From: an uncultured Hyphobacterium sp.
GTDB taxonomy: Bacteria; Bacteroidota; Bacteroidia; Cytophagales; CCMP332
Assembly (NCBI GenBank): GCA_964351965.1
Contig: CAYGPM010000015.1
Location: 5,306-29,305 of the forward strand
DNA: 24,000 nucleotides
Direction: 5' to 3'
Made by a program: the position numbers and the translations under genes. Below the pieces are notes generated by a model that saw nothing but the letters and a program-made list of their open reading frames with translations, was not told the origin of the DNA and ran no database searches. Positions 1,727 to 20,198 of this stretch are shown in pieces. Positions within the stretch are counted from its first letter, which is position 1. Every line of letters begins with the position of its first letter.

Positions 1727-2532
1727 GCAGCCTGAGGTTTTTGAGCTAAAACATGTATGGCGTTTCCATTTTCTGACTTAAAGAATATCCTGTCGAGATG
1801 GATTAAAAATTTGCTTAAAGGAAGAAAAAGCAGATGAAATATTAAGCCTGTCTTTTTTGCCAGATAGGATATTTCCCAGGCAGCCCTGGATAATAGTCCA
1901 TCGCTTGATCTGGCGCAAAGTATTTCAAAGCCTTCACTTTCTACTCTTTCTTTCAATCCTTTCAGATCGTAAACCTGACCAATGTGTTCGTCATCCAGCC
2001 ATTTATTGTGTTCTACAAATAAATTCTGAGGTAGTATCGTCCTCTGACTCAGGTTGGGAATCTTTACTAAAAACAACCCGCCGGGCTTTAGTCTTTTATG
2101 AACCGCTTTAAAGGGCATTTCTTCCGGCAAAATATGTTCGAACACATCAACAGAATAGATGAAATCAAAATTGGACATGAATAATCGATCCAGTAAAAAA
2201 TTATGGGGGCGGATATTTCTAACCTTTTCTTTTTCGATTACTGACTTTAGTATTTTGATCCTTGAACCATCAATATCTAATGCATGTATCTCTGCATGAG
2301 GAAAGGCCCTGGAAAGAGCAAAACTATATTCACCAAAACCACAGCCAAGGTCTAGTATTTTGGAGTCGGGTTTTATCCCAAGTTTTGAGATAATCTCGTG
2401 GAAAATTGTGAACCTGGCATAATTGCCTATATTGGTATAACCGAAAATGGCCATCATAATTTTTCCGAGAAAAGGGTGATTCCTCATCTTCTCGCTACTG
2501 TGTACCTGTTCTTTTCCAAATTGAAATTTCAT
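1723..2532 (-). CDS. Class I SAM-dependent methyltransferase
   Basis: ILDLGCGFGEYS (SAM-binding motif I) and LKPGGLFLVKIPN. Stop/start overlaps with both neighbouring genes. Confidence 0.8.
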   Translation of the reverse strand: MKFQFGKEQVHSSEKMRNHPFLGKIMMAIFGYTNIGNYARFTIFHEIISKLGIKPDSKILDLGCGFGEYSFALSRAFPHAEIHALDIDGSRIKILKSVIEKEKVRNIRPHNFLLDRLFMSNFDFIYSVDVFEHILPEEMPFKAVHKRLKPGGLFLVKIPNLSQRTILPQNLFVEHNKWLDDEHIGQVYDLKGLKERVESEGFEILCARSSDGLLSRAAWEISYLAKKTGLIFHLLFLPLSKFLIHLDRIFFKSENGNAIHVLAQKPQAA

Positions 2533-3818
2533 GCTCTTACGTTTTTGATTTGAATAATTAATTCTTGAAAGTTTTGTGGTTTTGATTTAGAGAATAGAAT
2601 TATCTGGCCGATCGCAATGGTCAGAATTATGGCTATTACCGTGGCGATTGCTGCTCCGGAGATGCCCAAAAGGGGAATCAAAATGAAGTTCAGCGTAAGA
2701 TTTAAAGCCAGGCTGATTAATAAAAGTCTGGAATTCAATTGAGGGTGATGCATGGCATCAATACTCAATCCGGACACCCTTCCGATGGGTTTGATCAGAC
2801 TGGCAATCATCAATATCTGAATGATGTAGGAGGCATCCTCAAGTCCGGGCGAGGAGAATAACCAAAAAACCATTTCTGGAAAGAGGAGAAATATTGATAA
2901 TCCGGGCAGCATTCCCAAAATCATCAGAACAATCGATTTATAATAAATTGACTCGAAGGCCAGTCTTTGATATTTTGAAAAATATCTGGAGAGCTTAGGA
3001 AACAAATATTGAGAAAGACCATTGAGAGGAATTTCTATGTAATTAATCACCTTACTGGCAAAATGGTATATCGCGATAGCTTCTTTTCCTACAAAAAGAT
3101 TTAAAATGAGAATATCAGATTTATGAAATAAAATGGATAGGACATTGGTACTTCCTGAGTAGCGCCCAAAGTCAAAAAATTTTACAAGGATGGATTTAAC
3201 TGGTGTTGAGAATTCTGGTTTTTCTATCAGAAAGAAATTGATCATCACAATAAAGGCCGACGCAAACTGAATCAGGAGTAATAACCAAATGCTCAGATTG
3301 CCCAGAAAGTAAAACCAGATCGTAAACACAACTGAAAAAGCAACATAAATACTGTTTAATATGAACTGCTTTTTGAAGTTTTCTTTGGCAATTAGCAGGG
3401 TATTGAGAAATTGGATAAAGGCAGAAGCCAATACCGGTAGAAGAATCAGAAGAAACAATTCATTCAGCAATCCAAAAGCACCCAAAAGCATGAATGGCAG
3501 GGAAAGCACTATCACAATGGAAATGTTAAGTAAAAATGCACTGCTTATCAAAGCGGGTTCTTTATCCGGGCTTTGGTGCAAGACCCTGATAAGTTCATGA
3601 TGAATAAAACCCTGGCGAAAATGATCTATGATATTCACCCATGTAATAAATACCGCCCACTCCCCAAGTGCTTTCAAATCCAGACTTCTCACCAGCAGGA
3701 TATAGAGGAGAAAACTTCCTGAAAACAAGAGCAAATGGTTTAGCACAGACAAGGTTCCTGTGAGCAGATGAGAAAAAGAGCTTTGAAATTTATGCAGCGA
3801 TTGTTTCATAATATGCAT
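2529..3818 (-). CDS. wzx: Oligosaccharide/polysaccharide flippase, MOP superfamily (Wzx-like)
   Basis: 429 aa, almost entirely hydrophobic helices (about 12). Position and size are typical of Wzx in Wzy-dependent loci. Start overlaps the upstream GT4 gene by about 20-29 nt. Confidence 0.7.
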   Translation of the reverse strand: MHIMKQSLHKFQSSFSHLLTGTLSVLNHLLLFSGSFLLYILLVRSLDLKALGEWAVFITWVNIIDHFRQGFIHHELIRVLHQSPDKEPALISSAFLLNISIVIVLSLPFMLLGAFGLLNELFLLILLPVLASAFIQFLNTLLIAKENFKKQFILNSIYVAFSVVFTIWFYFLGNLSIWLLLLIQFASAFIVMINFFLIEKPEFSTPVKSILVKFFDFGRYSGSTNVLSILFHKSDILILNLFVGKEAIAIYHFASKVINYIEIPLNGLSQYLFPKLSRYFSKYQRLAFESIYYKSIVLMILGMLPGLSIFLLFPEMVFWLFSSPGLEDASYIIQILMIASLIKPIGRVSGLSIDAMHHPQLNSRLLLISLALNLTLNFILIPLLGISGAAIATVIAIILTIAIGQIILFSKSKPQNFQELIIQIKNVRA

Positions 3819-4935
3819 TTATGGTTGCCCTGGAAATTTTTCTCAGATCAAATTTTTTAGCTGCGAATGCTCTTGCTTTTTTCCCCATTTCGATACTCAA
3901 AGTGGGATCGTTATAAAACTTAAGAACTGCAGATTTATAGGCCTGGAGATCGTTGATCCCACATAAAAAACCTGTGCTCTTATCCACTACACACTCACGT
4001 ATTGCCGGAATATCGCTGGCAATTGAAGGAATAGAATTTGCCGCTGCCTCCAGCAGTACAATCCCCTGCGTCTCGTGATAGGATGGAAGAACTAAGGCCA
4101 GGCTATATTTGAGCACTTCATTGATTTCATAGCGCTGAAGATCACCATGAAAGTTTATCCTCGAGTGCAATCCTTTCTTTCTGGTCATTTGCTGTAGCCG
4201 ATCTTTGAGCGGGCCTGAGCCAATAATATTGAGACTGATGTCCCATGGCAAATGATTCATCAGTTCAATCAGAAACTCTACGTTTTTGATTTTGGTAAGG
4301 CGGCCTACAAAAGTGATGGCCTGTCGATTCTTTATTAGTTTGCCGGCACTGTCAAATCGCAATCCGTTGGGAATAACTTTGACTCTCTCTTCACATTTCC
4401 ATCGATTCGACAAAACTGACTGCATCAATTCATTATTTACAGTCAAAATCCTATCCGCACTTCTGATTTGATTGAGCTCGAAAGGTCTTGTAAAAAACCT
4501 GTAAATCTTTGAGCCAATTTGTTCATCGCTGTAAACCAATTCATGATCCAGCAAACCATGTATGGTTTGTACTATTGGCGTTCTGCCCTTGACAGAAGCA
4601 CCCAAATATCCGGTCCGCCCTTGCATATGAATGATGTCATAGTTGTGATTGTTTTTTCTAATCCAATTTTTCAGTGCGAGATTGAAAAAGAACTCTTCAG
4701 CCAAAAGAGCGATAGGAAAAATATAGCGTCCTGGGAAATAAGGTATTTCAATAACTTTTATGCCTTCCTTTATATATTCACTGCCTCTCATGAAGGAACC
4801 CGCTGCAATGATCGTCACCTCATGACCGAGGTCGCAAAGTTCTTTGGATAAAGTCCAGCTATGTGTTTGTATTCCTCCTTTGAAAGACCATGGAAGGCTC
4901 TTGCACAACATAGCGATTTTCAGTTTCTTTTTCAT
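3790..4935 (-). CDS. Glycosyltransferase family 4 (GT-B, group 1)
   Basis: N-terminal SFKGGIQTHS and C-terminal PSYHETQGIVLLEAAANSIP (E-x7-E motif). Confidence 0.85.
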   Translation of the reverse strand: MKKKLKIAMLCKSLPWSFKGGIQTHSWTLSKELCDLGHEVTIIAAGSFMRGSEYIKEGIKVIEIPYFPGRYIFPIALLAEEFFFNLALKNWIRKNNHNYDIIHMQGRTGYLGASVKGRTPIVQTIHGLLDHELVYSDEQIGSKIYRFFTRPFELNQIRSADRILTVNNELMQSVLSNRWKCEERVKVIPNGLRFDSAGKLIKNRQAITFVGRLTKIKNVEFLIELMNHLPWDISLNIIGSGPLKDRLQQMTRKKGLHSRINFHGDLQRYEINEVLKYSLALVLPSYHETQGIVLLEAAANSIPSIASDIPAIRECVVDKSTGFLCGINDLQAYKSAVLKFYNDPTLSIEMGKKARAFAAKKFDLRKISRATINAYYETIAA

Positions 4936-5027
4936 CTGCTTTTCTGTTTTCTGAATAGTGCTTTACCTCTCATCAGGCCCATGATCAAAAAGGCCAGACC
5001 AATTGTCAGAATGATAAACCAGGGCAT
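4932..5027 (-). CDS. Possible 31-aa single-pass membrane micropeptide (small ORF, not in the track)
   Basis: Minus-strand ATG at 5027 gives MPWFIILTIGLAFLIMGLMRGKALFRKQKSR*: one hydrophobic helix plus a basic tail. It fills the only gap between two coupled genes. It starts 4 nt after the upstream stop (5032) and its TGA overlaps the next ATG (ATGA at 4932-4935). Confidence 0.3.
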   Translation of the reverse strand: MPWFIILTIGLAFLIMGLMRGKALFRKQKSR

Positions 5028-5031
5028 TCCT

Positions 5032-6201
5032 TCAGCGATCATAATTCAAATGTTTTGTGTGGATAAAATTTCTTTTAGACTCCTTTATCAGGCTTAATCC
5101 CTTAAATGTAGATCCCAATAAAGAAGGTAAAGCGGCGATTAATACACCGATATTTTTAAAAATCCAGCCCGGAGGAACTAGAATGATATAGGTGAGAATA
5201 TTTAAAAACAATGCTATGAAATTAAGAACCGCCAGTTCCGGAGAAGAGATTAACAATGCACCCACTCCCAGCAATATGGAGAATGCCGGAATCAGGGTTC
5301 TGGGAGGTATGGCTAATTGCATGACTTTGTGGAAATAGTCGACATTGCCTTTAGCCATATACTTCCATGCATCCTGAAAATTGTTTATCAAAAAACTGTA
5401 TTGTGCTTCCAGCCAGCGACCTCTTTGATTGCCCATTTGCTCAAAGTCAAAACACTTCTCATCCAGCACGAAAATCTCCTCGTTATAATAAATTTTGATT
5501 CCTTTCTTGGTCAGTAAAAGTTCCATCTCCTTATCAAAACCACCCACCGCTTTGAGCCGCGGAATAATGTCCAAAAAAGTTTCCTTATCGAGTATCATTC
5601 CGGAGCCGGAAAGTTTTGAACTTAAGCCAAGCACATTTGCACCCTTGCATAAAATCTTATGATTGGCTCTTTCGGAAATTGCATCAAATACGGATGAGGC
5701 TTCGTACAGATTTTTGGCTGTTCGAAGTGTCTGAATAATGCTTTTTCCGGAAGAAAGAAGGCTGGATGCGCCAAGCAGATAATTATCGGACATAATGTTG
5801 TCGGCATCCAGAATGATCAGTCCTTCATAATCCGAATCACTCACAAAACCGATTACCGAATTGAGGGCTTTTACTTTAGTACTTTTTTCAAGCTCAATTT
5901 CCTTTACGCGGACTCCCATATTGCGGAGCTTTTGAACGCTTATGGCTTTCATCTGATCTGAAATAACCATGAGATCAAAATTCTTTCCGAGATAGTTTAT
6001 TTTTTGATTAGCCAGACAGGCCTGAATAATAACATCATCCTCTTTATATGCAGGAATGAGAACCAAAAGCTTTTTTTGATCCAATTCAGATGGTAAGTGC
6101 AGTTTTTTTCCAGCCGAAGACAGAGCAGCAATGGCAAGTAAAAACTGATAGAGAATAACCGCGGAGATAAAAAGACTCAAGATTCCAAATAGTATATTCA
6201 T
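5032..6201 (-). CDS. Integral-membrane GT2 glycosyltransferase, processive-synthase-like (QxxRW)
   Basis: N-terminal TM helix, LIPAYKEDDVI, ILDADN (DxD), QRGRW (QxxRW), C-terminal TM helices (LIPAFSILLGVGALLI, LNFIALFLNILTYIILV). Confidence 0.8.
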   Translation of the reverse strand: MNILFGILSLFISAVILYQFLLAIAALSSAGKKLHLPSELDQKKLLVLIPAYKEDDVIIQACLANQKINYLGKNFDLMVISDQMKAISVQKLRNMGVRVKEIELEKSTKVKALNSVIGFVSDSDYEGLIILDADNIMSDNYLLGASSLLSSGKSIIQTLRTAKNLYEASSVFDAISERANHKILCKGANVLGLSSKLSGSGMILDKETFLDIIPRLKAVGGFDKEMELLLTKKGIKIYYNEEIFVLDEKCFDFEQMGNQRGRWLEAQYSFLINNFQDAWKYMAKGNVDYFHKVMQLAIPPRTLIPAFSILLGVGALLISSPELAVLNFIALFLNILTYIILVPPGWIFKNIGVLIAALPSLLGSTFKGLSLIKESKRNFIHTKHLNYDR

Positions 6202-7622
6202 GATTGTGTTTTCCTGTCGATTTTGTGAATAATAAAAAGCAGTGGTATTGCAATATTCATAATCATACCTGTAGGCATTTGCCCAAAAACCTGATTGCCA
6301 TAGGAGCTGGCCAGTACGCCTGCAATAGAAGCATAAATGGCATGTGCGTATGATCGCAGTCTTGGGTTTTGGAGATTTGTCACAGCCACATAGGCCATTC
6401 CCATTATGTAAAAGAGAAATCCAATATGAAGAACAATACCCACTAAACCGGTCTCAGCCCATATTTTGACATACCAGCTGTCCGTGGCGGTTTTGGCAAG
6501 TAAAGAATTCGGATTAAAGCGAAATCCCCAATAGCCCGCAGTACCGACTCCGCCTCCAAAAGGTTTGTCGGCCAAATAATTTGCGAATGTTTTCTGATTT
6601 TCAAGTCTTACAAGAAGTGAAGGATTTTGTGCATCCAATGCACTTCTCATTCTCCTTACCTGCTCTACTCCCTGAAACAAAAAGGTGTATTTCAATATGT
6701 AAAACACCAGGGCAAATCCTGCCAGACCTCCGAGTAAAACCTTGAAGTTTTTGTTTATTAAAAGATAAGCCAGACCACCAAAGGCCGGAACTGCAAGTGC
6801 TCCCCTTGTACCTGAAATAGCGAAGCCCAAAAAGCACATCACGAAGGCTAGAAGGAATAAGATTTTTTTGCCTTTTGAATGCGGTCCTATAAATAGTATG
6901 CCGGAAAACAAAAACATCATAGCCTGATTGGCTCCAAACTGACCGGCATCACTGTAAAATGAGAATACTCTTAAGACTCCATGGAGCAAATGCTCATCCT
7001 GGTGATTTTCTGCAAAGAGCCAGTGGTTTTCGGCATAGTCAAGAATTCCGAATTGTTGTTTGAAACCCCAGAGCGAACCCAAAACAGAAAAAAAGATCAA
7101 AAGCCAAATGAAACGCTCAACATCCCTGATCTCTTTAACCAAAAGAAATACAAGTCCGAAGGTCAGCAATTGGTAAAAACCGATTCCTCTCATTGCATAA
7201 AACCATGCCACAGCTCCATTTCCATAGGTATTAAAAAATTCCAGACAGATGTAAATGAACCATATAGCAGCCACCAGAAAAATGTCATTTTTTAGTCCCG
7301 ACCAGTCAATGTTTCTTTTAAATAGAAGTGCAATCCAGGAAATGAAGAGAATGATATCGACACCCAGTCCCCAGGGTAAATTTATATATCGGGTAATTCC
7401 TGAAATGAGAAAGGAGAGAACAAGAGAGAACCAAATACCTGATTTCGGCTCCTTGAATAGTTTATAAATGAAAACAAACAGAAAAGGAAGGACAAAACTG
7501 AAAATCAGACCAATTAATCCGAGCCAGTAGATGGCCAGACAGGCAAAAAGTAAAAAGAGGATAATATATATACCCTTTGTGCTTCCTGCTTCGTCTAAAA
7601 TATGTATTGTCCCGGTTTTCAT
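6198..7622 (-). CDS. wzy: O-antigen polymerase/ligase-family polytopic membrane protein (Wzy-like)
   Basis: 474 aa with at least 10 hydrophobic segments. ISGTRGALAVPAFGG-type loop as in the Wzy_C/O-antigen ligase domain. ATGA overlap with the downstream GT2 gene. Confidence 0.7.
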   Translation of the reverse strand: MKTGTIHILDEAGSTKGIYIILFLLFACLAIYWLGLIGLIFSFVLPFLFVFIYKLFKEPKSGIWFSLVLSFLISGITRYINLPWGLGVDIILFISWIALLFKRNIDWSGLKNDIFLVAAIWFIYICLEFFNTYGNGAVAWFYAMRGIGFYQLLTFGLVFLLVKEIRDVERFIWLLIFFSVLGSLWGFKQQFGILDYAENHWLFAENHQDEHLLHGVLRVFSFYSDAGQFGANQAMMFLFSGILFIGPHSKGKKILFLLAFVMCFLGFAISGTRGALAVPAFGGLAYLLINKNFKVLLGGLAGFALVFYILKYTFLFQGVEQVRRMRSALDAQNPSLLVRLENQKTFANYLADKPFGGGVGTAGYWGFRFNPNSLLAKTATDSWYVKIWAETGLVGIVLHIGFLFYIMGMAYVAVTNLQNPRLRSYAHAIYASIAGVLASSYGNQVFGQMPTGMIMNIAIPLLFIIHKIDRKTQS

Positions 7623-7629
7623 TATAGAA

Positions 7630-7637
7630 CAAAACTA
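7630..7637 (-). promoter_or_regulatory. Bacteroidota-type -7 promoter box TAGTTTTG (TAnnTTTG), 7 nt upstream of the wzy ATG
   Basis: Minus strand reads atcTAGTTTTGttctataATG. Exact match to the TAnnTTTG consensus. It lies in the only large gap inside the operon, downstream of the phased repeats at 7687-7718. Confidence 0.35.
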
Positions 7638-7686
7638 GATTTCAGCTATGGGCTTTTCTTGATTATTAGACGGGGCTCAGCACTTG

Positions 7687-7718
7687 TCCGATGAATGACA
7701 GAATTTTTCCGATGAATG
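7687..7718 (-). promoter_or_regulatory. Two perfect 11-bp direct repeats CATTCATCGGA, 21-bp period (candidate LytTR-regulator box)
   Basis: Plus strand has tccgatgaatg at 7687-7697 and 7708-7718. The repeats are oriented with the operon and lie upstream of wzy. Confidence 0.5.
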
Positions 7719-7743
7719 GTTTTTGGCGAAAGCAACCTGAAAT

Positions 7744-8883
7744 TCAGGATGCTATCAGGGTCTGGAGCAATTGGGCCCGCTTTCTCCAGCTTTGTTCTTT
7801 GCTAAAACTGACTCTTTCTGCTATCCTATCCCCGCAATTTTGGAGCTGCGCATTTTGAAGAGCGAAATTGAATTCTGAATGGCTTCGGCAAATATCTATT
7901 ATCCCTGAAAAGGATTCTATATCGACAGAGAAATCGGTACTGATGACCGCTTTTCCCATGGCGAGATATTCGTTGATTTTGAGGGGATAAATAAAACGAG
8001 TGAATTCGTTTGAGCGAAAAGGAATAATACAAACAGCACTGTCTTGTAAAAGATCTGCCGATTCCTCCTGGCTTTTGGATCCTGTGAGAATGAGATTCGA
8101 ATATTGCTGCTTTAACTTAAAGATTCGTTCATCTTTAACCGGACCTATAAACTGGAATTTCAATTTTGGGTTTTCTGACAACATCGACTCAAGCAAATCG
8201 AAGTCTATGCGATCATCAATGGCTCCGAGATAGGATACTAAATTCTCCTGAGAAGCTTCTAATTTGGGCGAGAAAACCCTGTGATCAAATCCATTGAATA
8301 CTGTAAAAGTATTTGGATTCCGAACTTTAAGTTTATCCCTGAGAGCACCTGAGCTTGTAATTACCAGATCTGAATCTTCACAGTATTTTCCCTCATAGGG
8401 AAGCTGATGAAGTTTTGCCCAGGACATAGCCTCCATATTATCATAGGCATAATAAACCCTCCTTTTTGGTTTGAAAATTTCTGCCATAGAAGACCATTTT
8501 GGATTCATGGCATTAATGTAAATCGTGTTCTCAAGCCGGAGCTTTCGGGCAATTCTTTTGCAGCTGCGCCTAAGAATAAGGTTGTTTATCTTTTGAATCA
8601 AAGCTTTGAAAAGTGGAATGTGTGGCAAAATCGGCGCTGAGCTAAAAACACTGATCCTCGCATTATTTGCATTTTGAAATTGTCTGAGTCTGCTTTTCAC
8701 ACCAAGGATATTCCATTTAGGCACATAAGATTTAAAGATTAAATCCTTTAAGCTGTATGGGTAATCGATAAATAGAATGTCCTTGTCCTTATCCAATTCC
8801 TGTATTAATTCAATCGTGGATTTCTTGTAGGGCGCATCCCAAGAAGGAAAGCTATGAAATACTATGGTCTCCTTTTTACTCAT
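7744..8883 (-). CDS. Putative glycosyltransferase, GT-B fold (GT4/TuaH-like)
   Basis: C-terminal half LGAIDDRIDFDLL...IIPF...PLKINEYLAMGKAVISTDF resembles the group-1 GT C-domain. Assignment by resemblance only. Confidence 0.55.
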   Translation of the reverse strand: MSKKETIVFHSFPSWDAPYKKSTIELIQELDKDKDILFIDYPYSLKDLIFKSYVPKWNILGVKSRLRQFQNANNARISVFSSAPILPHIPLFKALIQKINNLILRRSCKRIARKLRLENTIYINAMNPKWSSMAEIFKPKRRVYYAYDNMEAMSWAKLHQLPYEGKYCEDSDLVITSSGALRDKLKVRNPNTFTVFNGFDHRVFSPKLEASQENLVSYLGAIDDRIDFDLLESMLSENPKLKFQFIGPVKDERIFKLKQQYSNLILTGSKSQEESADLLQDSAVCIIPFRSNEFTRFIYPLKINEYLAMGKAVISTDFSVDIESFSGIIDICRSHSEFNFALQNAQLQNCGDRIAERVSFSKEQSWRKRAQLLQTLIAS

Positions 8884-10982
8884 TTCGAAACTGAAATTTC
8901 AACTTTAGTCTGACCCAGTAATAATGATTTAAATACTTTTCTGATTTTGCTTCGCTTCCTTGGAATTTCGCCGATTAAAGATTCCATTTCATCCAGGTCC
9001 AATCCATTTAAAAAGAGTTGAAGTTTTTCTGAAATATGTTTTTGGACGAGCTCAAGAGCTTTTTCATCAGCTACGGTCCAGTTTCTTTTGGCATTGCTGA
9101 CGAGAATATTCGCATCCATTTGCTTCAACCATGACATTGGGAAATTGCCCTGAAGAATAGAGGGGAATTCATAAATTATTATTTCAGAATCACTTTGATA
9201 CTTTTCGAAAACAGAAGCTGTGTCAACTTTGTATCCGGCTTCGATGAAAGCGCTTTTTAATTTACCTATGACAAAAGATTTCCCTTCTGACTTATAATTG
9301 CTCAAAACAGCCATTCGGAATTGCCTTCCGGAAGTCCTTTCCCCCAAATTCAGGTTTTGAATGAAAAGGTTAAGAATTGAATTTTCTATACCAGGAAGAT
9401 CTATTTTATCGGAAAGGTCTTTCCTAATTAAAGGAAGGGCAGCCGCTACTTTCATAGAGGTAATTTCTTCGGCTTTAACCGGATTCTTAAGGGAATTATC
9501 AAGCAATTCAGAAGCTACCAACACGACAAGAGGTATGAATGCACCAAGAATCATCGATAATACTATCAGGAGAATTCGTTTTGATTTTTCAGGAATTTCC
9601 GGAAAAAAAGGAGGGTCGATCACCTTCAGATTACTCGACATGAGCATATTATACTTGTGCAATCTTGCCTGGTTGTAGCTATGCAGATTTTCAAGATATT
9701 CTCTTTCTGCGACGTCTATTTCTCTTTCAAGTCTTTTAAGAGTCGAACCCAGTGGTGCAAATTTTTTGTACAATTCCTTGTAATCATTCCTCATCTGCTT
9801 CATGGCTTCAAGCTTCGCTCCCGCCTCGGACTTCTGTATGTAATTGCTAAGCCATTGCTGAAGAATATCTCTGGATTGGATACCATCTTTGGTAGTTTTG
9901 ATAGAAATCAGACTTGACGCAGAGCTATTAATTTCTTCTTCAAGTTTAAACCTTCTCGCATTCAGGTTCATCAGACGAAGATTATCGGATTCGTTTTGCT
10001 TATTGTCGATCAGATTGAGAACGGCAAGCTCCGTATTTATCTCTGCGAGTTCATTGTTGTTGTGAAATAATTCTTCCTGAAGCAAGGTGATCAGACCCTG
10101 GTTTTCAAGTTTTTCTTCGAGTCTGTTGATGACCGAATCTGCCGCTGAGTAGATTTTTATCTCTTCATTGTATTTCTTGTCCAGCTCTTCTTTATTCCCG
10201 GCGATGAAACGCGTCTGCTCATAATAATTAATTATCTGATTGGACACGCTGAAGGTCAATAAAGAGTTCTCGGCATTATTCAGTTTTTCCTCAGAATTCC
10301 TAGCTGCTTTTTCAAAAAATTCAATCACCGATTCGGTTTGACCTTCCTTGATTTCCTTGTGTTTTCTAAGGAAAATTTCTGTCAATAGAACCAGCGTATT
10401 TTTACTGAAAAACGGATCAATACTTGTGTATTCCATTTTGATCATGTCGGAATTTCCTTCACGTTCCACCTTAATACCAGAAAGTGCCCTCAGACCAAAA
10501 AGTAAATGTTTGGAATAGAGCAATTCATAGACAAGGCTCTCTCTATCCTCTTCGAATGCCCTTCTTAAGAATTGGTAAATTTTTTCATCGGAACCTAAAA
10601 TTTCCTCCGGTACTTCAAGACGATTAAGCAGTTCAAGAATTTCTTCAAGGTTTTCGGGGAGCAACTCAAGTTTCTCATTTTTTGAATTGCGAATACATTG
10701 AGCCAGTAGTTTTAAGGATAATTCTTTGTGGGTTTCGGTTGTACTAGCCAGATTAATCAGGTTTTCAATCTCATTATTGGTGTAGGCATAATCCACGCGA
10801 CTTCCCTGCTGACTTTCGATATTATAGCCGGAGATCAATCCGGTATTCAACAAGGTATGAGACGTGTATTGTTTTTTTTGTCCGGATGTAAGCAAGATGC
10901 TTGATGCCGTCAATACCAATGAACCAATGAGGATCCATTTGAAATTTCTGAAAAGCAGTTTTATAAATTCCTTTGATGTCAT
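8880..10982 (-). CDS. Polysaccharide co-polymerase (Wzc/GumC-like chain-length determinant) with shortened, degenerate C-terminal P-loop domain
   Basis: TM1 (WILIGSLVLTASSILL), about 440 aa of Glu/Lys/Leu-rich coiled-coil periplasmic region, TM2 (ILLIVLSMILGAFIPLVVLVA), then 207 cytoplasmic residues with the Walker-A-like segment SNYKSEGKSF. Confidence 0.7.
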   Translation of the reverse strand: MTSKEFIKLLFRNFKWILIGSLVLTASSILLTSGQKKQYTSHTLLNTGLISGYNIESQQGSRVDYAYTNNEIENLINLASTTETHKELSLKLLAQCIRNSKNEKLELLPENLEEILELLNRLEVPEEILGSDEKIYQFLRRAFEEDRESLVYELLYSKHLLFGLRALSGIKVEREGNSDMIKMEYTSIDPFFSKNTLVLLTEIFLRKHKEIKEGQTESVIEFFEKAARNSEEKLNNAENSLLTFSVSNQIINYYEQTRFIAGNKEELDKKYNEEIKIYSAADSVINRLEEKLENQGLITLLQEELFHNNNELAEINTELAVLNLIDNKQNESDNLRLMNLNARRFKLEEEINSSASSLISIKTTKDGIQSRDILQQWLSNYIQKSEAGAKLEAMKQMRNDYKELYKKFAPLGSTLKRLEREIDVAEREYLENLHSYNQARLHKYNMLMSSNLKVIDPPFFPEIPEKSKRILLIVLSMILGAFIPLVVLVASELLDNSLKNPVKAEEITSMKVAAALPLIRKDLSDKIDLPGIENSILNLFIQNLNLGERTSGRQFRMAVLSNYKSEGKSFVIGKLKSAFIEAGYKVDTASVFEKYQSDSEIIIYEFPSILQGNFPMSWLKQMDANILVSNAKRNWTVADEKALELVQKHISEKLQLFLNGLDLDEMESLIGEIPRKRSKIRKVFKSLLLGQTKVEISVSK

Positions 10983-11695
10983 GATCTAAAAATTGATTGT
11001 CCAACAAGTGCACTTAAAAGCTCAATGCTTTCGAAAGCCTGACTTTTCGATTTTTCAAATTTCAATTTGCTGTTGTAAAAGGTGTCCACGCTCCCTTTGT
11101 ATTCTTCCATTGATACATTCCCGTTTCGAAATGATTTTTCCACCAGAATCATATTGGCCTGATAGGTATTCATGATTTTAGAGAGCAATTCCATTTCATC
11201 AAGGTGAAACAAAAGAGAACTGTACTGACGAATCACTTCCTTTTGCAGCAAAATGACATTATCAGATTTGAGATATTCGATCTCCTGTATTTGCATTTCT
11301 TTGGCTCTGACCTCATACTTCCGGTTCGCCACCTTGCTCATCGGCAGATATAGATTTACCCCAAGGTTGTAAAATGTATTTTTCCGGTTGGTATAATTCA
11401 AACCCTGGATACCACTAGTGTTGATCTCATCGAGAACATAACCCGTTCCGTAATTCATATTTCCACTTAGGAAAATATGATCCATCCAGTTTTTTTTCAG
11501 ACCCGAAATTTCATGATTGATTCTCATCTGCCGAGCCTCAAGAGAGTGCAGATTATTCGAATTCTCCTCTGCAATTGCGAGCAATTCATCCAAAGAGATT
11601 AAGCTTTCTTTTTTTGGAAGCTCGCTCTGTGCCGATGCAAAACTCATCGGGCATAACAATGCCGTTGTAAAAAGTAAAATCAATATCCTATTCAT
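10979..11695 (-). CDS. Secreted TolC/OEP-like outer-membrane protein, apparently a single repeat (half length)
   Basis: Signal peptide MNRILILLFTTALLCPMSFASAQ. SLDELLAIAEENSNNLHSLEARQ resembles the OEP-family N-terminus. Only 238 aa. ATGA-type overlap with the co-polymerase gene. Confidence 0.45.
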   Translation of the reverse strand: MNRILILLFTTALLCPMSFASAQSELPKKESLISLDELLAIAEENSNNLHSLEARQMRINHEISGLKKNWMDHIFLSGNMNYGTGYVLDEINTSGIQGLNYTNRKNTFYNLGVNLYLPMSKVANRKYEVRAKEMQIQEIEYLKSDNVILLQKEVIRQYSSLLFHLDEMELLSKIMNTYQANMILVEKSFRNGNVSMEEYKGSVDTFYNSKLKFEKSKSQAFESIELLSALVGQSIFRS

Positions 11696-11732
11696 AATTC
11701 AATCTCATTAGTTTTCTTTCACTTTGTTTTTT

Positions 11733-12854
11733 TCACCATTTGGACCTCATAAAAGGTTTCTCAAGGAAATAAAAGGCAGGCACACTCATTCCAAGTATAA
11801 TTGGTATGGCAAGCAGGGCCATCAAGATAAGGTTGCTGTAATAATTCCGGATTTCAACAAAATAATAGAATACGGTTGAAATGGCCTCCAGCAAAGGCAG
11901 GTGAATAAGGTAAATGGTATAGCACATACCTCCGATAGTAATAATCAACTTTTGGCTCAAAAGAATCGATATAAAGCGACCTTTGAACATGCTCAGAAAC
12001 AGCATCAACATGGATGTTTCCATTATTAAGCTGCTTGCTAATTCCTGCTTCCAGTTAAATTGTACTAAAAGAAGAGCTGGTATAAATACAATATCCCAGA
12101 ACACCGACTTATTCTTTATATAATCGCTATTGACATATAAATCTGCTAGCATAATTCCCAGAATAAAATGAGGTAACTGACCCAATATGCTTGCTCTGAA
12201 AGGTTCCTCAAACCAATTCAATTGAAACTGAATCAGAATAAAAATGAATATAAGGAAGGCCTGAGCAATCAGTCTTTTATGAAGGTCGGCGATTTGCAAT
12301 AGTGCCACAATAAGAAAGGGAGCAATAAGGTAAAATTGGATTTCAACTTCGAGTGACCAGGCAACCGGATTGATTGTTGAATATTCCGTATACATTATGT
12401 TATGAGAATAGAAAATGCTGGCGAAAAAATGTTTCAGATTTCCGATAGTCCATTCTTCTTTTAATGAGAGGATAAGAAAGAAAACCAGCATCCATAACAC
12501 ATAGGTAGGTTCGAGTCTGGTAATTCGACGCCATATATAGGATTTGTAATTTATTCCTTCAGAAACTTGATTTTTCAGAAAAGGTAAGGCTATAATAAAT
12601 CCGCTAAGACAAAAGAAAATAAATACTCCTACCGTTCCCCGACTGATTAAAAATGACAGTTTCTCCTCCATTCCCTCATTTATCAGCAATACCGAATTGT
12701 ATTTCACCATTCTTTCATTCAGATGCTGAAATAATACAAGGGCAATTGCAAGGAAGCGAATACCATCAACCAGGGGGATATAGTTACCCGAGGATGTTTC
12801 CCTTTTGAGCAAATTCAAAATAGATGATAGCTTTTTCATCTTAAACATTTTCAT
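11733..12854 (-). CDS. Acyltransferase family 3 (membrane O-acyl/acetyltransferase, OafA/WecH-like)
   Basis: IPLVDGIRFLAIALVLFQH opening motif and about 10 TM helices. Alternative ATG at 12839 would remove the 14-nt overlap with the upstream gene. Confidence 0.8.
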   Translation of the reverse strand: MKMFKMKKLSSILNLLKRETSSGNYIPLVDGIRFLAIALVLFQHLNERMVKYNSVLLINEGMEEKLSFLISRGTVGVFIFFCLSGFIIALPFLKNQVSEGINYKSYIWRRITRLEPTYVLWMLVFFLILSLKEEWTIGNLKHFFASIFYSHNIMYTEYSTINPVAWSLEVEIQFYLIAPFLIVALLQIADLHKRLIAQAFLIFIFILIQFQLNWFEEPFRASILGQLPHFILGIMLADLYVNSDYIKNKSVFWDIVFIPALLLVQFNWKQELASSLIMETSMLMLFLSMFKGRFISILLSQKLIITIGGMCYTIYLIHLPLLEAISTVFYYFVEIRNYYSNLILMALLAIPIILGMSVPAFYFLEKPFMRSKW

Positions 12855-13620
12855 GCTGAAACATGGCCGAAAAGGTTTTAAGCAGAATGCCGATATCGCC
12901 AGCCAAATTCATTTCTCTTGCATATTGAACATCGAGTTGAATTCTCCGACAAGCATCCAAATTATCCTTTCCTCTTTCTGTTACCTGCCATAAGCCGGTA
13001 ATTCCGGCAGGAGCAAGGAAGCGTGCGGTATAATCATTTTGCGTGAGTCTTTCGGCTTCATACAGCGGCAAAGGTCGGTTGCCAACTAATGACATGTCGC
13101 CTTTTAATACATTGATCAACTGAGGTAATTCATCCAGACTGGAGTTTCTTATGATCCTTCCAAAGCGCGTTATTCTTGGGTCATTTTTGATTTTGACAAA
13201 GGCATTGTTGTTTTCCTCAAGTTTGATTTTGTCATAAGAATCGATGTCAAGCATTCCCTCGTTTCCGATAAGTGAGTTGTCAATCTGGTAATTCGCAATT
13301 GCGCTTCTTGTCAATTTTTTTATGGGAGTGCTCGAAGAATTCTTCTCTTTGTACTGATTCAAATCTGAAATTTCAGCCAGTCGTTTATCCGCATCGCTAT
13401 ACATCGACCGGAATTTGTAAAACTTAAAAACCTCATAATTTTTACCGGCTCTGAGTGAGTAATAAAAAACCGGCCCCTTTGATTCCAGCTTGATAATCAA
13501 TGCTATTAATAAAAAGACAGGCGAAAGGATGAGCAGGAGCATAGATGCCGCTAGCAAATCGATTGCCCTTTTTAAATACAGTGAATAGATGTTGTTTTTC
13601 ATTGATTTATTTTTATTCAA
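12841..13620 (-). CDS. Initiating polyprenyl-phosphate sugar-phosphate transferase (bacterial sugar transferase, PglC/WbaP-C-terminal type)
   Basis: One N-terminal re-entrant/TM helix, YKFRSM, NDPRITRFGRIIRNSSLDELPQLINVLKGDMSLVGNRPLP, PAGITGLWQV. The track start at 13620 is a TTG; the first ATG is at 13602. Confidence 0.85.
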   Translation of the reverse strand: MNKNKSMKNNIYSLYLKRAIDLLAASMLLLILSPVFLLIALIIKLESKGPVFYYSLRAGKNYEVFKFYKFRSMYSDADKRLAEISDLNQYKEKNSSSTPIKKLTRSAIANYQIDNSLIGNEGMLDIDSYDKIKLEENNNAFVKIKNDPRITRFGRIIRNSSLDELPQLINVLKGDMSLVGNRPLPLYEAERLTQNDYTARFLAPAGITGLWQVTERGKDNLDACRRIQLDVQYAREMNLAGDIGILLKTFSAMFQHENV

Positions 13621-13653
13621 AGTACGTGTAGCGCAGGACGGGGATAAGAAAAT

Positions 13654-13685
13654 ATCGATGTCTGACCGGATTTCATCGATGAGTG
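13654..13685 (-). promoter_or_regulatory. Two related boxes CACTCATCGAT / CAGACATCGAT, 21-bp period, upstream of the first operon gene
   Basis: Plus strand has atcgatgtctg at 13654-13664 and atcgatgagtg at 13675-13685, between the terminator at 13706-13727 and the sugar-transferase start. The ATCGAT core is palindromic, so orientation is ambiguous. Confidence 0.4.
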
Positions 13686-13705
13686 AAAGGAATAAATAGT
13701 TAAAT

Positions 13706-13727: not shown

Positions 13728-13733
13728 TTTCTG

Positions 13734-16158: not shown

Positions 16159-16280
16159 AACTTTTTTTTCACGAAAGTAGAGCGATCATCTCAGGCCAAA
16201 ATGATTTTTAGACCAAGTGATAAATTCTTTCGACAAGTATCAGATTTGTGTCGATTAATAAAATTTTTTGCTCCAAGCTA

Positions 16281-16296
16281 TTAATGCGAGCATTAA
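16281..16296. promoter_or_regulatory. 16-bp palindrome TTAATGC-ga-GCATTAA in the divergent promoter region
   Basis: Perfect 7-bp arms with a 2-bp centre, in the 250-283 nt gap between the REC gene (minus) and the kinase gene (plus). Confidence 0.3.
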
Positions 16297-16408
16297 GACA
16301 TGCTGAAATGCGTCTCGATTTGGGACAAAATTTCCCATATTAAGAACCATGGAATTTAATTTGCCTTCTAAATCTCTTTAAACAAAGAATTTTCAAAGGG
16401 ATCGAAAC

Positions 16409-18862
16409 TTGTTAAAGATATTTTCGTCTAAGGTATTTGACATGAACGAATTTGATATTGTATTTAAACTGGACTCCTCATTCAAGGTATTGTTTGCGAA
16501 TGATACATTTTATGAAGTTCTGAAATTGGAGAAAAGCCAAGTTCGGAGTATCACATTATTTGATATCATCAGTCCGGAATACAGATCAAACATTGAAATA
16601 CTTCATGAAAATCTGTTAAAGGATTCAGACAAAAAGCATGAACTGGAAATACCTTGCCAAAGCGGTTCAGGAGAAAAAATCTGGCTGAGAATTACCATTC
16701 AAAAAAGTAGTTCAATCGATGAGAGCCTGAAATTCATTGCAATTGCAAAAGATCATACAGATCGCATCTATACCAAAAAGCTTGTTTTGTCAAATGAGCA
16801 AAAGTATCGCGAAATCATTGAAAACATTGATCTCGGATTGATGGAAGTAGATTTGGCTGAAAATATTCTGTTTGCCAATGAGTCATTTTGTAAAAGCACT
16901 GGATATACACTTGAAGAAATAAAAGGAAAAAATGCAAGCAAAGTATTTGCCCCTGAAGATGTCCGTTTCCAAAAATTAATTGGAGAACACAATGACTTAA
17001 GGATGGAGGGCAAGTCTACCGTATATGAAATGAGTCTGACAAAAAAAGACGGCACACATGCCTGGATGATGATCAGTGGGGCACCTGTAAAAGACATCAA
17101 TGGAAAAGTTGTAGGGTCTATTGGTATTCATCACGATATCACATCAAGGAAGTTAGAGGAAATAAATAAGAAAAGTCTTTTAAAGGAATTAGAATCCAGA
17201 AACAAAGAATTAATCAAAAATCAGGAATTCCTGAAAGCCATTAATGACTTTGTCACCGGATTAATGCACAGCAACAATATTGAAGATATCGTACATAATA
17301 TTACGCAGGGTACCATCGAAAAATTCCAGTTCGAGGATTGTGTGGTTTATTTAATGAATGAGCAGAAGACGGAGCTTCATCAAATAACTGCATATGGTCC
17401 CAAGAATAATAATGGGAAAATCAATAACCCAATCGTCATTCCGTTGGGTCAGGGAATTGTAGGAAGTGTCGCTAAAAGTGGAAGAGCAGAAATTATAAAT
17501 GATACAAGCAAGGACCCACGATATATAGTTGACGATGAAATGCGATATTCGGAACTGGCAGTTCCCATCATTTCCGATGAGGAAGTAATTGGTGTTATCG
17601 ATTCAGAGCATAGCCAAAAGAATTTTTTCAAAAAGGCACATTTAGAAACCCTCACTACCATAGCAAATTTGTCTGCTACCAAAATCAAAAGTTCAATCAT
17701 ACGTTCCAAAAAATCGATTTCAGACAGGGCTTTGATTGAAAGTGAAGAAAAATTAAGATCCATTATTAATTCTTCTCTCGATGCGGTAATAACCATCGAT
17801 GAATCCGGAATTGTAACCGAATGGAATCCTCAGGCAATCGAATTATTCAACTTTTCCAAAGAAGAGGCCATCGGAGAAAAACTATCCAATCTGATCATCC
17901 CCGAAGAATTCAGGGCCATGCACGACAAAGGAATGGAGCACTGGAGAAAAACCGGCGAAGGTCCTGTTTTGAATAAAAGAATCGAAATAGTTGGTATTAA
18001 CAAGGAGGGTCTATCTTTTCCAATTGAGCTGAGTATTGTTCCTGTAAAAAGTAAAGGGAAGCACTTTTTCTCTGCATTTGTAAGAGATATCACGCCAAGA
18101 AAAGAAGCCGAAAAACAAATGCATGATGCTCTCGAAAAGCAGAAAGAATTGGTGGAGTTAAAATCCCGATTTGTATCAATGACATCTCATGAGTTCAGAA
18201 CCCCTTTAACTACCGTGAAAGTCAATATAGAATTGATTGAATATCAGCTGGAAAAGTTAAATGCCGAAATGGGTAACAAATTCAGAAAAAACTTCAGCAG
18301 GATCGCTTCAGAAGTAAAAAGGCTCACAGAATTAATGGATGACATTCTGATTATCGGAAGAATTGAATCAGGAAAAACACCATTTAAACCAAAGAAAATC
18401 AATATTGTAGAATTCATAAGGCAAATCGTTGACACATCATTTTCCAAAAGAAGAGATGGTCGAAAGGTGGAATTTTTCAGCAATGAAAATGAGATAGAAG
18501 GGATGATCGATCCGCATGTATATGATCATATTGTGTGCAATCTTTTGTCAAATGCATTGAAATACTCAAAAGGAAAAGCAAATCCTGAAATACATCTCAA
18601 TAAAAAAGACGATTGTCTGGAAATCCGGGTAAGGGATTATGGCATAGGGATACCGGAACATGATCTCGAAAATATTTTTGACTCATTTTACAGAGCATCA
18701 AATGTTGAAAATATTCAGGGTACAGGACTGGGTTTGGCTATAGTAAAAGAATACGCTGAGATGCATAATGCAAGCCTAAGCATAGAGTCCATTCTCAATA
18801 AAGGAACAGAAATAACAATTAAACAACCAATTGAATCAAATACACTGATTACTGCAGAATAA
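16409..18862 (+). CDS. Soluble sensor histidine kinase, PAS-PAS-GAF-PAS-HisKA-HATPase_c
   Basis: No TM segments. PAS-like blocks (ILFANESFCKSTGYTLEEIKGKN; DESGIVTEWNPQAIELFNFSKEEAIGE). GAF (GQGIVGSVAKSGRAEIINDTSKDPRY...AVPI). H-box SHEFRTPLT. N and G boxes (NLLSNALKYS, DYGIGIP, GTGLGLAIV). The track start at 16409 is a TTG; ATG 16442 (MNEFDIVF...) is more likely. Confidence 0.9.
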   Translation: MLKIFSSKVFDMNEFDIVFKLDSSFKVLFANDTFYEVLKLEKSQVRSITLFDIISPEYRSNIEILHENLLKDSDKKHELEIPCQSGSGEKIWLRITIQKSSSIDESLKFIAIAKDHTDRIYTKKLVLSNEQKYREIIENIDLGLMEVDLAENILFANESFCKSTGYTLEEIKGKNASKVFAPEDVRFQKLIGEHNDLRMEGKSTVYEMSLTKKDGTHAWMMISGAPVKDINGKVVGSIGIHHDITSRKLEEINKKSLLKELESRNKELIKNQEFLKAINDFVTGLMHSNNIEDIVHNITQGTIEKFQFEDCVVYLMNEQKTELHQITAYGPKNNNGKINNPIVIPLGQGIVGSVAKSGRAEIINDTSKDPRYIVDDEMRYSELAVPIISDEEVIGVIDSEHSQKNFFKKAHLETLTTIANLSATKIKSSIIRSKKSISDRALIESEEKLRSIINSSLDAVITIDESGIVTEWNPQAIELFNFSKEEAIGEKLSNLIIPEEFRAMHDKGMEHWRKTGEGPVLNKRIEIVGINKEGLSFPIELSIVPVKSKGKHFFSAFVRDITPRKEAEKQMHDALEKQKELVELKSRFVSMTSHEFRTPLTTVKVNIELIEYQLEKLNAEMGNKFRKNFSRIASEVKRLTELMDDILIIGRIESGKTPFKPKKINIVEFIRQIVDTSFSKRRDGRKVEFFSNENEIEGMIDPHVYDHIVCNLLSNALKYSKGKANPEIHLNKKDDCLEIRVRDYGIGIPEHDLENIFDSFYRASNVENIQGTGLGLAIVKEYAEMHNASLSIESILNKGTEITIKQPIESNTLITAE

Positions 18863-18882: not shown

Positions 18883-19611
18883 ATGGATAGATATAGAGTT
18901 TTGATAGTAGAAGACGACCAGATGATTGCTGAAAGTCTTAAGGATATTTTAGAAACACTTGATATGGACGTTGCTGGTATTGCAACAAATGCAAAAGACG
19001 CACTTCACTTATTGGATTCAAGCCAACCTGATCTGGCGCTACTCGATATACAGATTAATGGAGACAAAGATGGACTTGAGTTAGCCGATTTAATTAAGGA
19101 GCAGTCGGATCTACCTTTTATTTTCACCACTGCCTTTGCTGATTCAAATACATTGGAAAAGGCCAAGGATCTCGGCCCTTTTGGTTATGTAGTCAAACCA
19201 TATGGCATCAAGGATGTCAATGCGGCAATTCGCATAGCCATGCAAAACCATGAATCTGTTCAAAATTTGAAGAAGTCTCGTGATGAAGCATTAATTAAAA
19301 ACAATCACCTGTATGTACGTTCGAACTCCAAACTGGTGAAAATTGAGGACAAAGAAATTCAGTATATAGAAGCAAAAGGGGATTATGCCATATTTAAGAC
19401 AGATAAAAAATCCTATATCGTTCATACAACCATGAAGAATGTCGAAGACAAACTGAATGGTTCCGGATTTCTTAAAGTTCACAGGTCATTCATAGTAAAT
19501 CTTGACAAAATTGAAGATATAGAAGATTCCAATTTATTGATTCAGGATAAAATCATCCCGATATCAAGAGCCAACAAAGACCTTTTAATGCAAAGGATTA
19601 ACCTATTGTAG
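18883..19611 (+). CDS. LytTR-family response regulator (REC + LytTR DNA-binding domain)
   Basis: Canonical receiver (LIVEDD, LALLDIQ with acceptor Asp, FTTA, VVKP). C-terminal YIEAKGDYAIFKT...FLKVHRSFIVNLDKI is the LytTR signature. Lies 20 nt after the kinase stop. Confidence 0.9.
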   Translation: MDRYRVLIVEDDQMIAESLKDILETLDMDVAGIATNAKDALHLLDSSQPDLALLDIQINGDKDGLELADLIKEQSDLPFIFTTAFADSNTLEKAKDLGPFGYVVKPYGIKDVNAAIRIAMQNHESVQNLKKSRDEALIKNNHLYVRSNSKLVKIEDKEIQYIEAKGDYAIFKTDKKSYIVHTTMKNVEDKLNGSGFLKVHRSFIVNLDKIEDIEDSNLLIQDKIIPISRANKDLLMQRINLL

Positions 19612-19634
19612 CCTTGAACCTATCCATGTTGAAG

Positions 19635-19665
19635 ACCTTCGGAATAATTCTGAAGGTTTTTTTTT
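19635..19665 (+). terminator. Rho-independent terminator of the kinase/regulator operon
   Basis: ACCTTCGGAA-taa-TTCTGAAGGT (10-bp stem including one G-U pair) followed by a run of T. Confidence 0.8.
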
Positions 19666-19666
19666 G

Positions 19667-19698
19667 CATTTCATCGACAGATCCCTGCACTTCATCGA
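19667..19698 (+). promoter_or_regulatory. Two 11-bp direct repeats CATTTCATCGA / CACTTCATCGA, 21-bp period (candidate LytTR box), upstream of the 134-aa ORF
   Basis: Repeats at 19667-19677 and 19688-19698, 10/11 identical. The proximal repeat ends 41 nt before ATG 19740. A near-consensus -7 box cATTTTTG lies at 19728-19735. Confidence 0.5.
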
Positions 19699-19739
19699 AA
19701 TATCCCCTCCAGGCTAGAATTATTAAGCATTTTTGAAAC

Positions 19740-20144
19740 ATGAAAACACTAAAAATGATACTTCTGATAGCTATTGTAACGATTTACAATCTTCAGGCAG
19801 AAACGTTAGGTTCAGAAATTTCTTCAGAGGTGAATAGAAATGAATCAAATGAAATCAGGTTTGATACCAATAAAGTTGGGATGGATGTTTCAATACTTTT
19901 ATTGTGCGGCCAGGTTTATTATGATGAGGCGATTTCTTTGACTAATAATTTAAACGAGGTTCAAAATCTTCACAAGATCTTCGAAATTCAGGAAGAAATG
20001 GTCAGATTACTGGAAATATCATCTCTATATGTTGAAATTGCCAGAAAAATGGATTCAGACAGTAAGGTGATTTTCGAACTTGAGGAAAAATTAAATATTG
20101 CCCTAAACAAGCGTTCAAATACTCAACTTTTGACATCGAGATAA
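19740..20144 (+). CDS. Hypothetical small secreted protein (134 aa), predicted helical
   Basis: Signal peptide MKTLKMILLIAIVTIYNLQA-ET. No recognisable domain. It has its own terminator and upstream phased repeats. Confidence 0.6.
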   Translation: MKTLKMILLIAIVTIYNLQAETLGSEISSEVNRNESNEIRFDTNKVGMDVSILLLCGQVYYDEAISLTNNLNEVQNLHKIFEIQEEMVRLLEISSLYVEIARKMDSDSKVIFELEEKLNIALNKRSNTQLLTSR

Positions 20145-20170
20145 TGCAAACAAATAGATTCACCTGAAAT

Positions 20171-20198
20171 CCGAAGAGATCAAGCTTCGGGTTTTTTT
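20171..20198 (+). terminator. Rho-independent terminator
   Basis: CCGAAG-agatcaag-CTTCGG followed by G and seven T. Confidence 0.75.

Follow-up and report, generated by a model that had tools for sequence, protein, structure and literature searches.

Phased tandem repeats beside a LytTR regulator gene form a conserved promoter element and a candidate LytTR operator in Bacteroidota

LytTR-domain response regulators are known mainly from quorum sensing in Firmicutes and from the proteobacterial proteins YpdB and AlgR. AlgR of Pseudomonas aeruginosa is reportedly a REC-LytTR regulator that activates an exopolysaccharide (alginate) operon; its sites are said to be separate 9-mers (CCGTTCGTC-like), some of them far upstream of algD, and not phased 21-bp tandem pairs. 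More generally, a LytTR site is made up of two repeats, direct or inverted, each of 9-11 nt, with a spacer of 11-13 nt between them and no common consensus (PMC4847170). At the yhjX promoter, the site of YpdB is a direct repeat of GGCATTTCAT (PMC4847170), and in the E. coli K-12 sequence of this promoter we found GGCATTTCAT twice with starts 21 bp apart, corresponding to a 10-bp box and an 11-bp spacer. AgrA dimers occupy direct repeats that lie just upstream of suboptimal promoters (PMC4227749). Our search of the full-text literature found no description of a LytTR regulator binding site or regulon in Bacteroidetes, Bacteroidota or Flavobacterium.

Here we describe a pair of phased direct repeats in the window, by which we mean the whole 24,000-nt stretch of DNA that was analysed. 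The 13-bp repeats TGCATTTCATCGA (19665-19677) and TGCACTTCATCGA (19686-19698) are identical at 12 of 13 positions, recur with a period of 21 bp and share the sequence TGCAyTTCATCGA. Within them, the cores CATTTCATCGA (19667-19677) and CACTTCATCGA (19688-19698) agree at 10 of 11 positions, again with starts 21 bp apart, and the sequence around both repeats reads GGTTTTTTTTTGCATTTCATCGACAGATCCCTGCACTTCATCGAAATATCC. A preliminary description of this DNA had given the cores at these coordinates, with this identity and period and with 41 nt between the proximal repeat and the ATG at 19740; direct reading of the sequence confirmed each of these values. Its placement of the pair between the terminator of the kinase/LytTR operon and the gene for a 134-aa protein also holds, as a hairpin followed by a T-run is present at the expected end of the operon, and the near-consensus -7 box that it had noted was found as CATTTTTG (Table 1).

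The family geometry given in that description matches the published one (PMC4847170), and the boxes described here fit it; likewise, the YpdB box that it gave agrees with both the published motif and the K-12 sequence, with GGCATTTCAT and an 11-bp spacer. Given this match in repeat length and spacer, the element shows the geometry that defines a LytTR operator. We think it probable that the repeats are tandem half-sites of an activator operator for the adjacent REC-LytTR regulator, with adjacency and geometry pointing to that protein as the likely binder.

Table 1. Coordinates of the promoter elements, genes and terminator-like structures in the window
Feature	Coordinates	Strand	Details
Wzy-type polysaccharide cluster	851..13620	-	Pfam; two units, each preceded by boxes
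Cluster unit 1			Bac_transf, Acyl_transf_3, OEP-like, GNVR chain-length protein, GT1_4
Cluster unit 2			After a box-bearing gap; Wzy_C, GT2_3, GT4, Polysacc_synt flippase, methyltransferase, GT2
-7 box TAGTTTTG	7630..7637	-	Perfect 6/6; 63 bp (42+21) from proximal box; 7 nt before Wzy_C ATG at 7622
Third candidate operator, boxes AAACCATTCATCGGAA and CTGTCATTCATCGGAC	7686..7722	-	21 bp apart; before Wzy_C unit; pair score 33.0
-7-like box GTACTTTG	13618..13625	-	4/6 to TAnnTTTG; +42 register, Bac_transf unit; TAGCTTTG in L054
Second candidate operator, boxes CTTTCACTCATCGATG and CGGTCAGACATCGATA	13653..13689	-	21 bp apart; before Bac_transf unit; pair score 31.2; conserved in L054
Stand-alone receiver-domain protein, 135 aa	15751..16158	-	Pfam; kept next to kinase in L054
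Weak TCGA pair 16230/16251	16226..16262	.	21 bp apart; divergent receiver/kinase gap; score 15.7
PAS-GAF-PAS HisKA/HATPase_c sensor kinase	16409..18862	+	Pfam; partner of the regulator
REC-LytTR response regulator	18883..19611	+	Pfam Response_reg 4e-23, LytTR 2.8e-19; proposed box binder
Terminator-like hairpin with T-run	19631..19661	+	Intrinsic type; closes kinase/LytTR operon; distal box directly after
Distal box TTGCATTTCATCGACA	19664..19679	+	Read directly; matrix score 16.0; kept in L054 and L055 (alignment)
Proximal box CTGCACTTCATCGAAA	19685..19700	+	21 bp from distal box; matrix score 19.7; conserved island in alignment
-7 promoter box CATTTTTG	19728..19735	+	Bacteroidota type; 5/6 to TAnnTTTG
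Candidate target gene 1, 134-aa protein with signal peptide	19740..20144	+	Single-gene unit between two terminators
Second terminator-like hairpin	20166..20195	+	3′ of the small 134-aa gene

As at yhjX, where YpdB is itself a REC-LytTR protein, two direct repeats 21 bp apart stand before a single target gene, and the distal box of the window (tGCATTTCAT) equals GGCATTTCAT at 9 of 10 positions. The preliminary description had remarked on this likeness, which is true of the distal box in this genome but not of the core shared by the orthologues, TCATCGA. The resemblance to GCATTTCAT is confined to that one box, its GCAT part is not conserved, and the orthologue core extends 3′ of the YpdB box. 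Moreover, the regulator is 27% identical to YpdB, lies far below the NCBIfam cut-off for BtsR and reaches no NCBIfam equivalog cut-off, on which grounds we rejected orthology to YpdB (PyrR). The kinase here is a soluble PAS-GAF-PAS HisKA protein, whereas the partner of YpdB is of the LytS type (PMC5552118), and the candidate targets are polysaccharide genes rather than a transporter gene. A YpdA/YpdB (PyrS/PyrR) pyruvate-responsive system was likewise rejected, as the locus has no LytS-type membrane kinase and the orthologue consensus does not contain the GGCATTTCAT box.

Other likenesses are to AgrA at agr P2 and P3 and to ComE, PlnC/D and BlpR. Here too, two direct repeats lie just upstream of a predicted promoter, the regulatory operon carries sites of its own (in the orthologues from Roseivirga, Algoriphagus and Cytophagales), and the strongest site precedes the gene for a small secreted product beside the two-component system. 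Unlike in that class, however, the small product, a predicted helical protein of 134 aa, carries an ordinary signal peptide and is not an obvious short peptide pheromone, the kinase is without a membrane domain, and the predicted promoter belongs to the Bacteroidota type (-7 TAnnTTTG), in a rigid 42-bp register. The LytTR domain is also only remotely similar to the solved structures of ComE (E=0.011) and AgrA (E=0.44). AlgR belongs to a system that differs from this one in kinase type and phylum. New here are the sequence of the box, its phylum and its rigid register with the -7 box of Bacteroidota; the class of mechanism is already known.

The presumed phospho-acceptor of the regulator, D55, aligns with D53 of YpdB, and the LytTR domain hardly varies among 11 orthologues. 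Its partner kinase has no hydrophobic N-terminus and is therefore predicted to be a soluble, cytoplasmic sensor; the kinase may start at ATG 16442, and there is an 806-aa gene call in the same strain. Across the divergent gap from the kinase, the stand-alone receiver is a possible phosphate sink or pathway branch. It lies upstream of the polysaccharide cluster together with a DUF4114/DUF4842 (LruC-domain) gene.

For the 134-aa protein, structure prediction gave a three-helix bundle (pLDDT 74). No Pfam or NCBIfam family matched it, a single real homologue was found among 1.8 billion representatives, and the predicted fold had no significant structural match (best E=0.36). The window also contains an IS110 element, 800 bp away from the repeats.

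We then considered how often such repeats occur in the window. The exact 11-mer CAYTTCATCGA is present at two places only, namely the two repeats. Its core CATCG[AG] occurs 33 times on both strands, and three same-strand pairs of it are exactly 21 bp apart: 19672/19693 (+), 7714/7693 (-) and 13681/13660 (-). Only one other same-strand pair was found at any spacing from 5 to 60 bp. In 2000 dinucleotide-preserving shuffles, the mean was 0.0075 pairs at 21 bp, with 15 shuffles reaching one pair and none reaching three. All three pairs are in intergenic DNA, which makes up 7.8% of the window, and the two minus-strand pairs are oriented along the direction of the polysaccharide genes. The comparison with coding and shuffled sequence that the preliminary description had proposed as a check therefore came out in its favour, with 21-bp pairs far rarer there than in the gaps and nothing refuted.

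The preliminary description had counted nine boxes, with recurrence in three further gaps. Two of these gaps stand, 13621-13733 (before the Bac_transf unit) and 7623-7743 (before the Wzy_C unit), giving six strong boxes in total; the third, 16159-16408, holds a weak TCGA pair that is poorly conserved in L054 and, on manual reading, has no -7 box in register. The third candidate operator, before the Wzy_C unit, is conserved in L054, L064 and L068.

To place these repeats in a wider context, we queried a protein database with the regulator and obtained hundreds of full-length Bacteroidota relatives at 55-71% identity, including proteins from Roseivirga, Algoriphagus, Cytophagales, Cryomorphaceae and a genome deposited as Hyphobacterium sp. 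CCMP332. When genome and metagenome collections were scanned with this query, no match exceeded 41% identity. Over the region, seven contigs from the same strain show 100% identity and so carry no information on variation. Seven loci bear boxes (the window, L054, L055, L062, L064, L067 and L068), with regulators that are 58-71% identical. In each of the seven, the kinase/LytTR pair adjoins the same Wzy-type cluster, and it recurs as a regulatory unit beside the boxes in 7/7. Conservation of the boxes in orthologous loci was another check put forward in the preliminary description, and where the kinase/regulator pair and the polysaccharide cluster occur together, the boxes are present in every case (7/7).

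Across these loci, the pairs are kept in position, spacing and core. They precede the small secreted-protein gene directly 3′ of the LytTR gene (window, L054 and L055), Bac_transf (window and L054, the latter with three phased boxes), the Wzy_C unit (window, L054, L064, L067 and L068) and, in L062, a GT2_3 gene. A candidate autoregulatory site before the kinase/LytTR operon itself, a common though not obligatory trait of LytTR systems, is clear in L062, L064, L067 and L068; in the window, the gap upstream of the kinase contains only the weak TCGA pair, a point against the operator reading. In three-way and two-way alignments, the intergenic flanks have diverged, leaving the boxes and the -7 box as conserved islands with no gaps between them. 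The terminator is kept across relatives in structure but not in sequence.

A matrix built from 20 boxes gives the 16-bp consensus CTGyCAyTCATCGAAA, with ATCG nearly invariant and an information-rich core of about 10 nt, yTCATCGAAA. Among pairs scoring above 20 in the polysaccharide-linked loci, 11 are spaced at 21 bp and 2 at 20 bp, with 0-2 at each other spacing; the two at 42 bp probably reflect three-box arrays. In 598 kb of unrelated control loci, by comparison, the best pair scored 20.0 and none exceeded 21, against 22-36 for the real sites. Because L067 and L068 were fetched after the matrix had been built and were held out of it, they provide an independent test. Each has pairs before the kinase and before the Wzy_C unit, as predicted, and all four pairs have a -7 box of 5/6 or better at +42. 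Together, these data establish that the repeats are a real, conserved promoter element, beyond chance, and a chance repeat was accordingly ruled out by the shuffles and the conservation.

The distribution of the boxes bears on the identity of the protein that binds them. Five loci (L057, L059, L061, L063 and L069) have an orthologous kinase/LytTR pair, its LytTR domain nearly unchanged, without an adjacent Wzy-type cluster, and no box pair was found in any of them over 10 kb to each side, a stretch that takes in the DNA upstream of the kinase. Searches of these five loci for variant boxes, with seed repeats and with the matrix, gave nothing. With boxes in 0/5 cluster-less loci, their association with the polysaccharide cluster is at least as close as that with the regulator. 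This pattern, with boxes in 7/7 loci that have the cluster and 0/5 that have the orthologous regulator without it, is what would be seen if the boxes were a genuine promoter element bound by an unlinked transcription factor, with the LytTR regulator merely adjacent. Several observations nevertheless make such a factor unlikely. Sites of the OmpR/PhoB type repeat at intervals of about 10-11 bp, and palindromes are the usual targets of helix-turn-helix dimers. Tandem direct repeats with a 21-bp period are instead the hallmark of sites for LytTR proteins (PMC4847170). In four loci, moreover, boxes stand upstream of the kinase/LytTR operon, and in three others they directly follow the LytTR gene. 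Finally, Pfam gene tables show no other DNA-binding regulator gene that recurs across the box-bearing loci, all seven of which encode the LytTR-domain regulator. The 21-bp geometry, the boxes before the kinase operon and the lack of another recurring regulator are our reasons for rating an unlinked factor low and for preferring the adjacent LytTR regulator as the binder.

Primary-sigma promoters of Bacteroidota have the consensus -33 TTTG / -7 TAnnTTTG, and the pairs lie immediately upstream of a predicted core promoter of this kind. In 12/15 arrays, the last base of an 8-mer that agrees with TAnnTTTG at 5/6 positions or better falls exactly at +42 from a box, counting from the C of CATCG, compared with a background of 0.87% per position for such matches. 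In each of the remaining three arrays, this position carries a near-miss, GTACTTTG in one and GTATTTAG in two. At the small gene, 42 bp separate the G of CATTTTTG from the C of the proximal CATCG. At the Wzy_C promoters of the window and L054, a perfect TAGTTTTG is found 63 bp (42+21) from the strong proximal box, and in L054 a weak third box lies between the strong pair and the -7 box. In the 12/15 arrays, the -7 box is fixed at +42 (or +63) from a box.

By manual reading of the sequences, a -33 TTG about 19-21 bp before the -7 box is absent from most box-linked promoters. A mostly missing -33 element is what an activator-dependent promoter would look like. Assuming transcription to start a few bases after the -7 box, we estimate that the box centres lie near -48 and -69, just upstream of where -33 would be, and that the boxes span about -41 to -77, clear of the -7 box and the start site. 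At the small gene, the G of the predicted -7 box precedes the ATG by only 4 nt. The mRNA would therefore have to be leaderless or nearly so, a requirement that weighs against the favoured reading; the ATGAAAACA start of this gene is conserved in three species.

This architecture also helps to weigh the sign of regulation. The LytTR regulator could bind the boxes but act as a repressor or roadblock, a less likely prospect than an unlinked factor and one that we regard as quite improbable. The sign of regulation is not readable from sequence, and at the Wzy_C promoters of the window and L054 the greater distance of the strong pair from the -7 box, with the weak box of L054 in between, could be taken in favour of repression. 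Against this, the estimated position of the boxes does not cover the -7 box or the start, and the mostly missing -33 is as expected for dependence on an activator. The rigid register of 42 bp (or 42+21) fits contacts with RNA polymerase on one face of the helix, and AgrA and YpdB, characterised LytTR regulators of such architecture, are activators. We therefore infer activation rather than repression. What the sequences show directly is the repeats, their non-random occurrence, their conservation and their fixed register with the -7 box, whereas the binding protein, the transcription start site and the signal that the kinase senses are inferred as well.

The idea that the repeats act at the RNA level (as part of a terminator, leader or small RNA), or are chance or mobile-element repeats, draws on the distal box abutting the terminator T-run and on the IS110 element at 800 bp, but can be dismissed as very improbable: no Rfam family matched anywhere in the window and 19662-19745 shows no excess folding (z = +0.95, with 172/200 shuffles folding at least as well), which together ruled out an RNA element; the boxes are, on our reading, upstream of the predicted starts and so not transcribed from these promoters; and the preservation of the boxes at the orthologous promoters of seven genomes, between flanks that have diverged, excludes both chance and mobile-element remnants, with 0/2000 shuffles reaching three pairs.

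Under the favoured reading, with the LytTR regulator as an activator at these boxes, the soluble PAS-GAF-PAS kinase would phosphorylate the regulator at D55, and two regulator molecules would occupy the boxes (CTGyCAyTCATCGAAA) head to tail, placed on one face of the helix by the 21-bp period. The bound regulator would then recruit or stabilise RNA polymerase at promoters that have a -7 box and mostly lack a -33 element, activating transcription. The predicted regulon in the window would consist of the 134-aa secreted-protein unit, which has the strongest site, the Bac_transf unit and the Wzy_C unit. In relatives, a promoter of this type also stands before the kinase/LytTR operon and would give positive feedback. 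Through the shared composite promoter, the two-component system would control the production of a Wzy-dependent surface polysaccharide or exopolysaccharide.

Taken as a whole, this may be the first defined LytTR regulon in Bacteroidota, a conserved polysaccharide switch in which a cytoplasmic kinase acts through a LytTR activator that replaces the missing -33 element, at a rigid 42-bp register from the -7 box; we put this forward tentatively, as a possibility with the balance somewhat against it. If it is true, a LytTR activator in place of -33 would be a distinct way to activate the unusual RNA polymerase of Bacteroidota, and the strongest candidate target, the gene for the orphan 134-aa secreted protein, might encode an extracellular feedback factor or a part of the matrix, in a role like that of the pheromone genes in the LytTR circuits of Gram-positive bacteria. 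The locus offers a 16-bp box, a fixed promoter architecture and a small, testable regulon, and it links a soluble PAS-GAF-PAS kinase to a Wzy-dependent cluster in Roseivirga, Algoriphagus, other Cytophagales and this lineage. This would permit genome-wide prediction of the regulon across these marine and soil bacteria, direct tests of capsule, exopolysaccharide or biofilm control, and the study of an all-beta LytTR activator at promoters of the -7/-33 type.

At the three small-gene promoters (in the window and at the related box-bearing loci L054 and L055), only 4 nt separate the final G of the -7 box from the ATG, and the same short distance is found at the Algoriphagus Wzy_C promoter (L064). 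This spacing implies that mRNAs from these four predicted promoters are leaderless or near-leaderless. Because the mechanically called TTG start of Bac_transf, at 13620, falls within the proposed -7 box (13625..13618), translation probably begins instead at the ATG at 13602. The TTG start of the kinase at 16409 (region 16409-16442) is likewise doubtful, since gene calls from the same strain give a protein of 806 aa.

The strongest candidate operator in the window precedes the gene at 19740-20144, whose product is an orphan secreted protein with a signal peptide and a predicted three-helix bundle (pLDDT 74). Among 1.8 billion representative proteins it has a single homologue, and its predicted structure matches no known fold significantly. 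An IS110-family transposase gene lies shortly 3′ of this small gene. All independent same-strain assemblies share an endpoint at window position 20359, which suggests that the IS110 insertion sequence is a repeated element that breaks assemblies.

Locations of features in the window and at related loci
Feature	Locus	Position	Details
DUF4114/DUF4842 (LruC-domain) gene	window	13734-15749	between stand-alone receiver gene and Bac_transf promoter
IS110-family transposase gene	window	20502-21569	Transposase_20 + DEDD_Tnp_IS110
-7 box G/ATG, small gene	window	19735-19740	
-7 box G/ATG, small gene	L054	about 10854-10859	
-7 box G/ATG, small gene	L055	about 10841-10846	
-7 box G/ATG, Wzy_C	L064	about 18939	
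Lanthipeptide cluster	L059/L060		C39-peptidase ABC transporter, Lant_dehydr_N/C, LANC_like

L054 (CP058647.1, 2763750-2784478) lacks the DUF4114/DUF4842 gene but is otherwise syntenic with the window. It is filed under Hyphobacterium sp. CCMP332 (Alphaproteobacteria), a label that looks wrong given that the locus encodes Por_Secre_tail (type IX secretion) proteins, carries TAnnTTTG promoters and has a Bacteroidota-type regulator with 71% identity to that of the window. At L059/L060 (10730-20729), a regulator orthologue (62% identity) is followed by a 760-bp gap and then a lanthipeptide cluster, the classic arrangement in which a LytTR regulator accompanies bacteriocin genes. A search for the CATCG box pair at this locus found none.

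In the E. coli K-12 yhjX promoter (L065 6131-6143), manual alignment places a third, degenerate box, CGTCATTCAT (6/10 match), in phase with the pair of GGCATTTCAT YpdB boxes and 21 bp upstream of them. Upstream of the kinase at the Roseivirga-type loci (L062 6618-6673; L067 6635-6670), the boxes read GTCAGTyATCGAAA and are spaced by 20 bp, not 21, a variant form of the site specific to this lineage.
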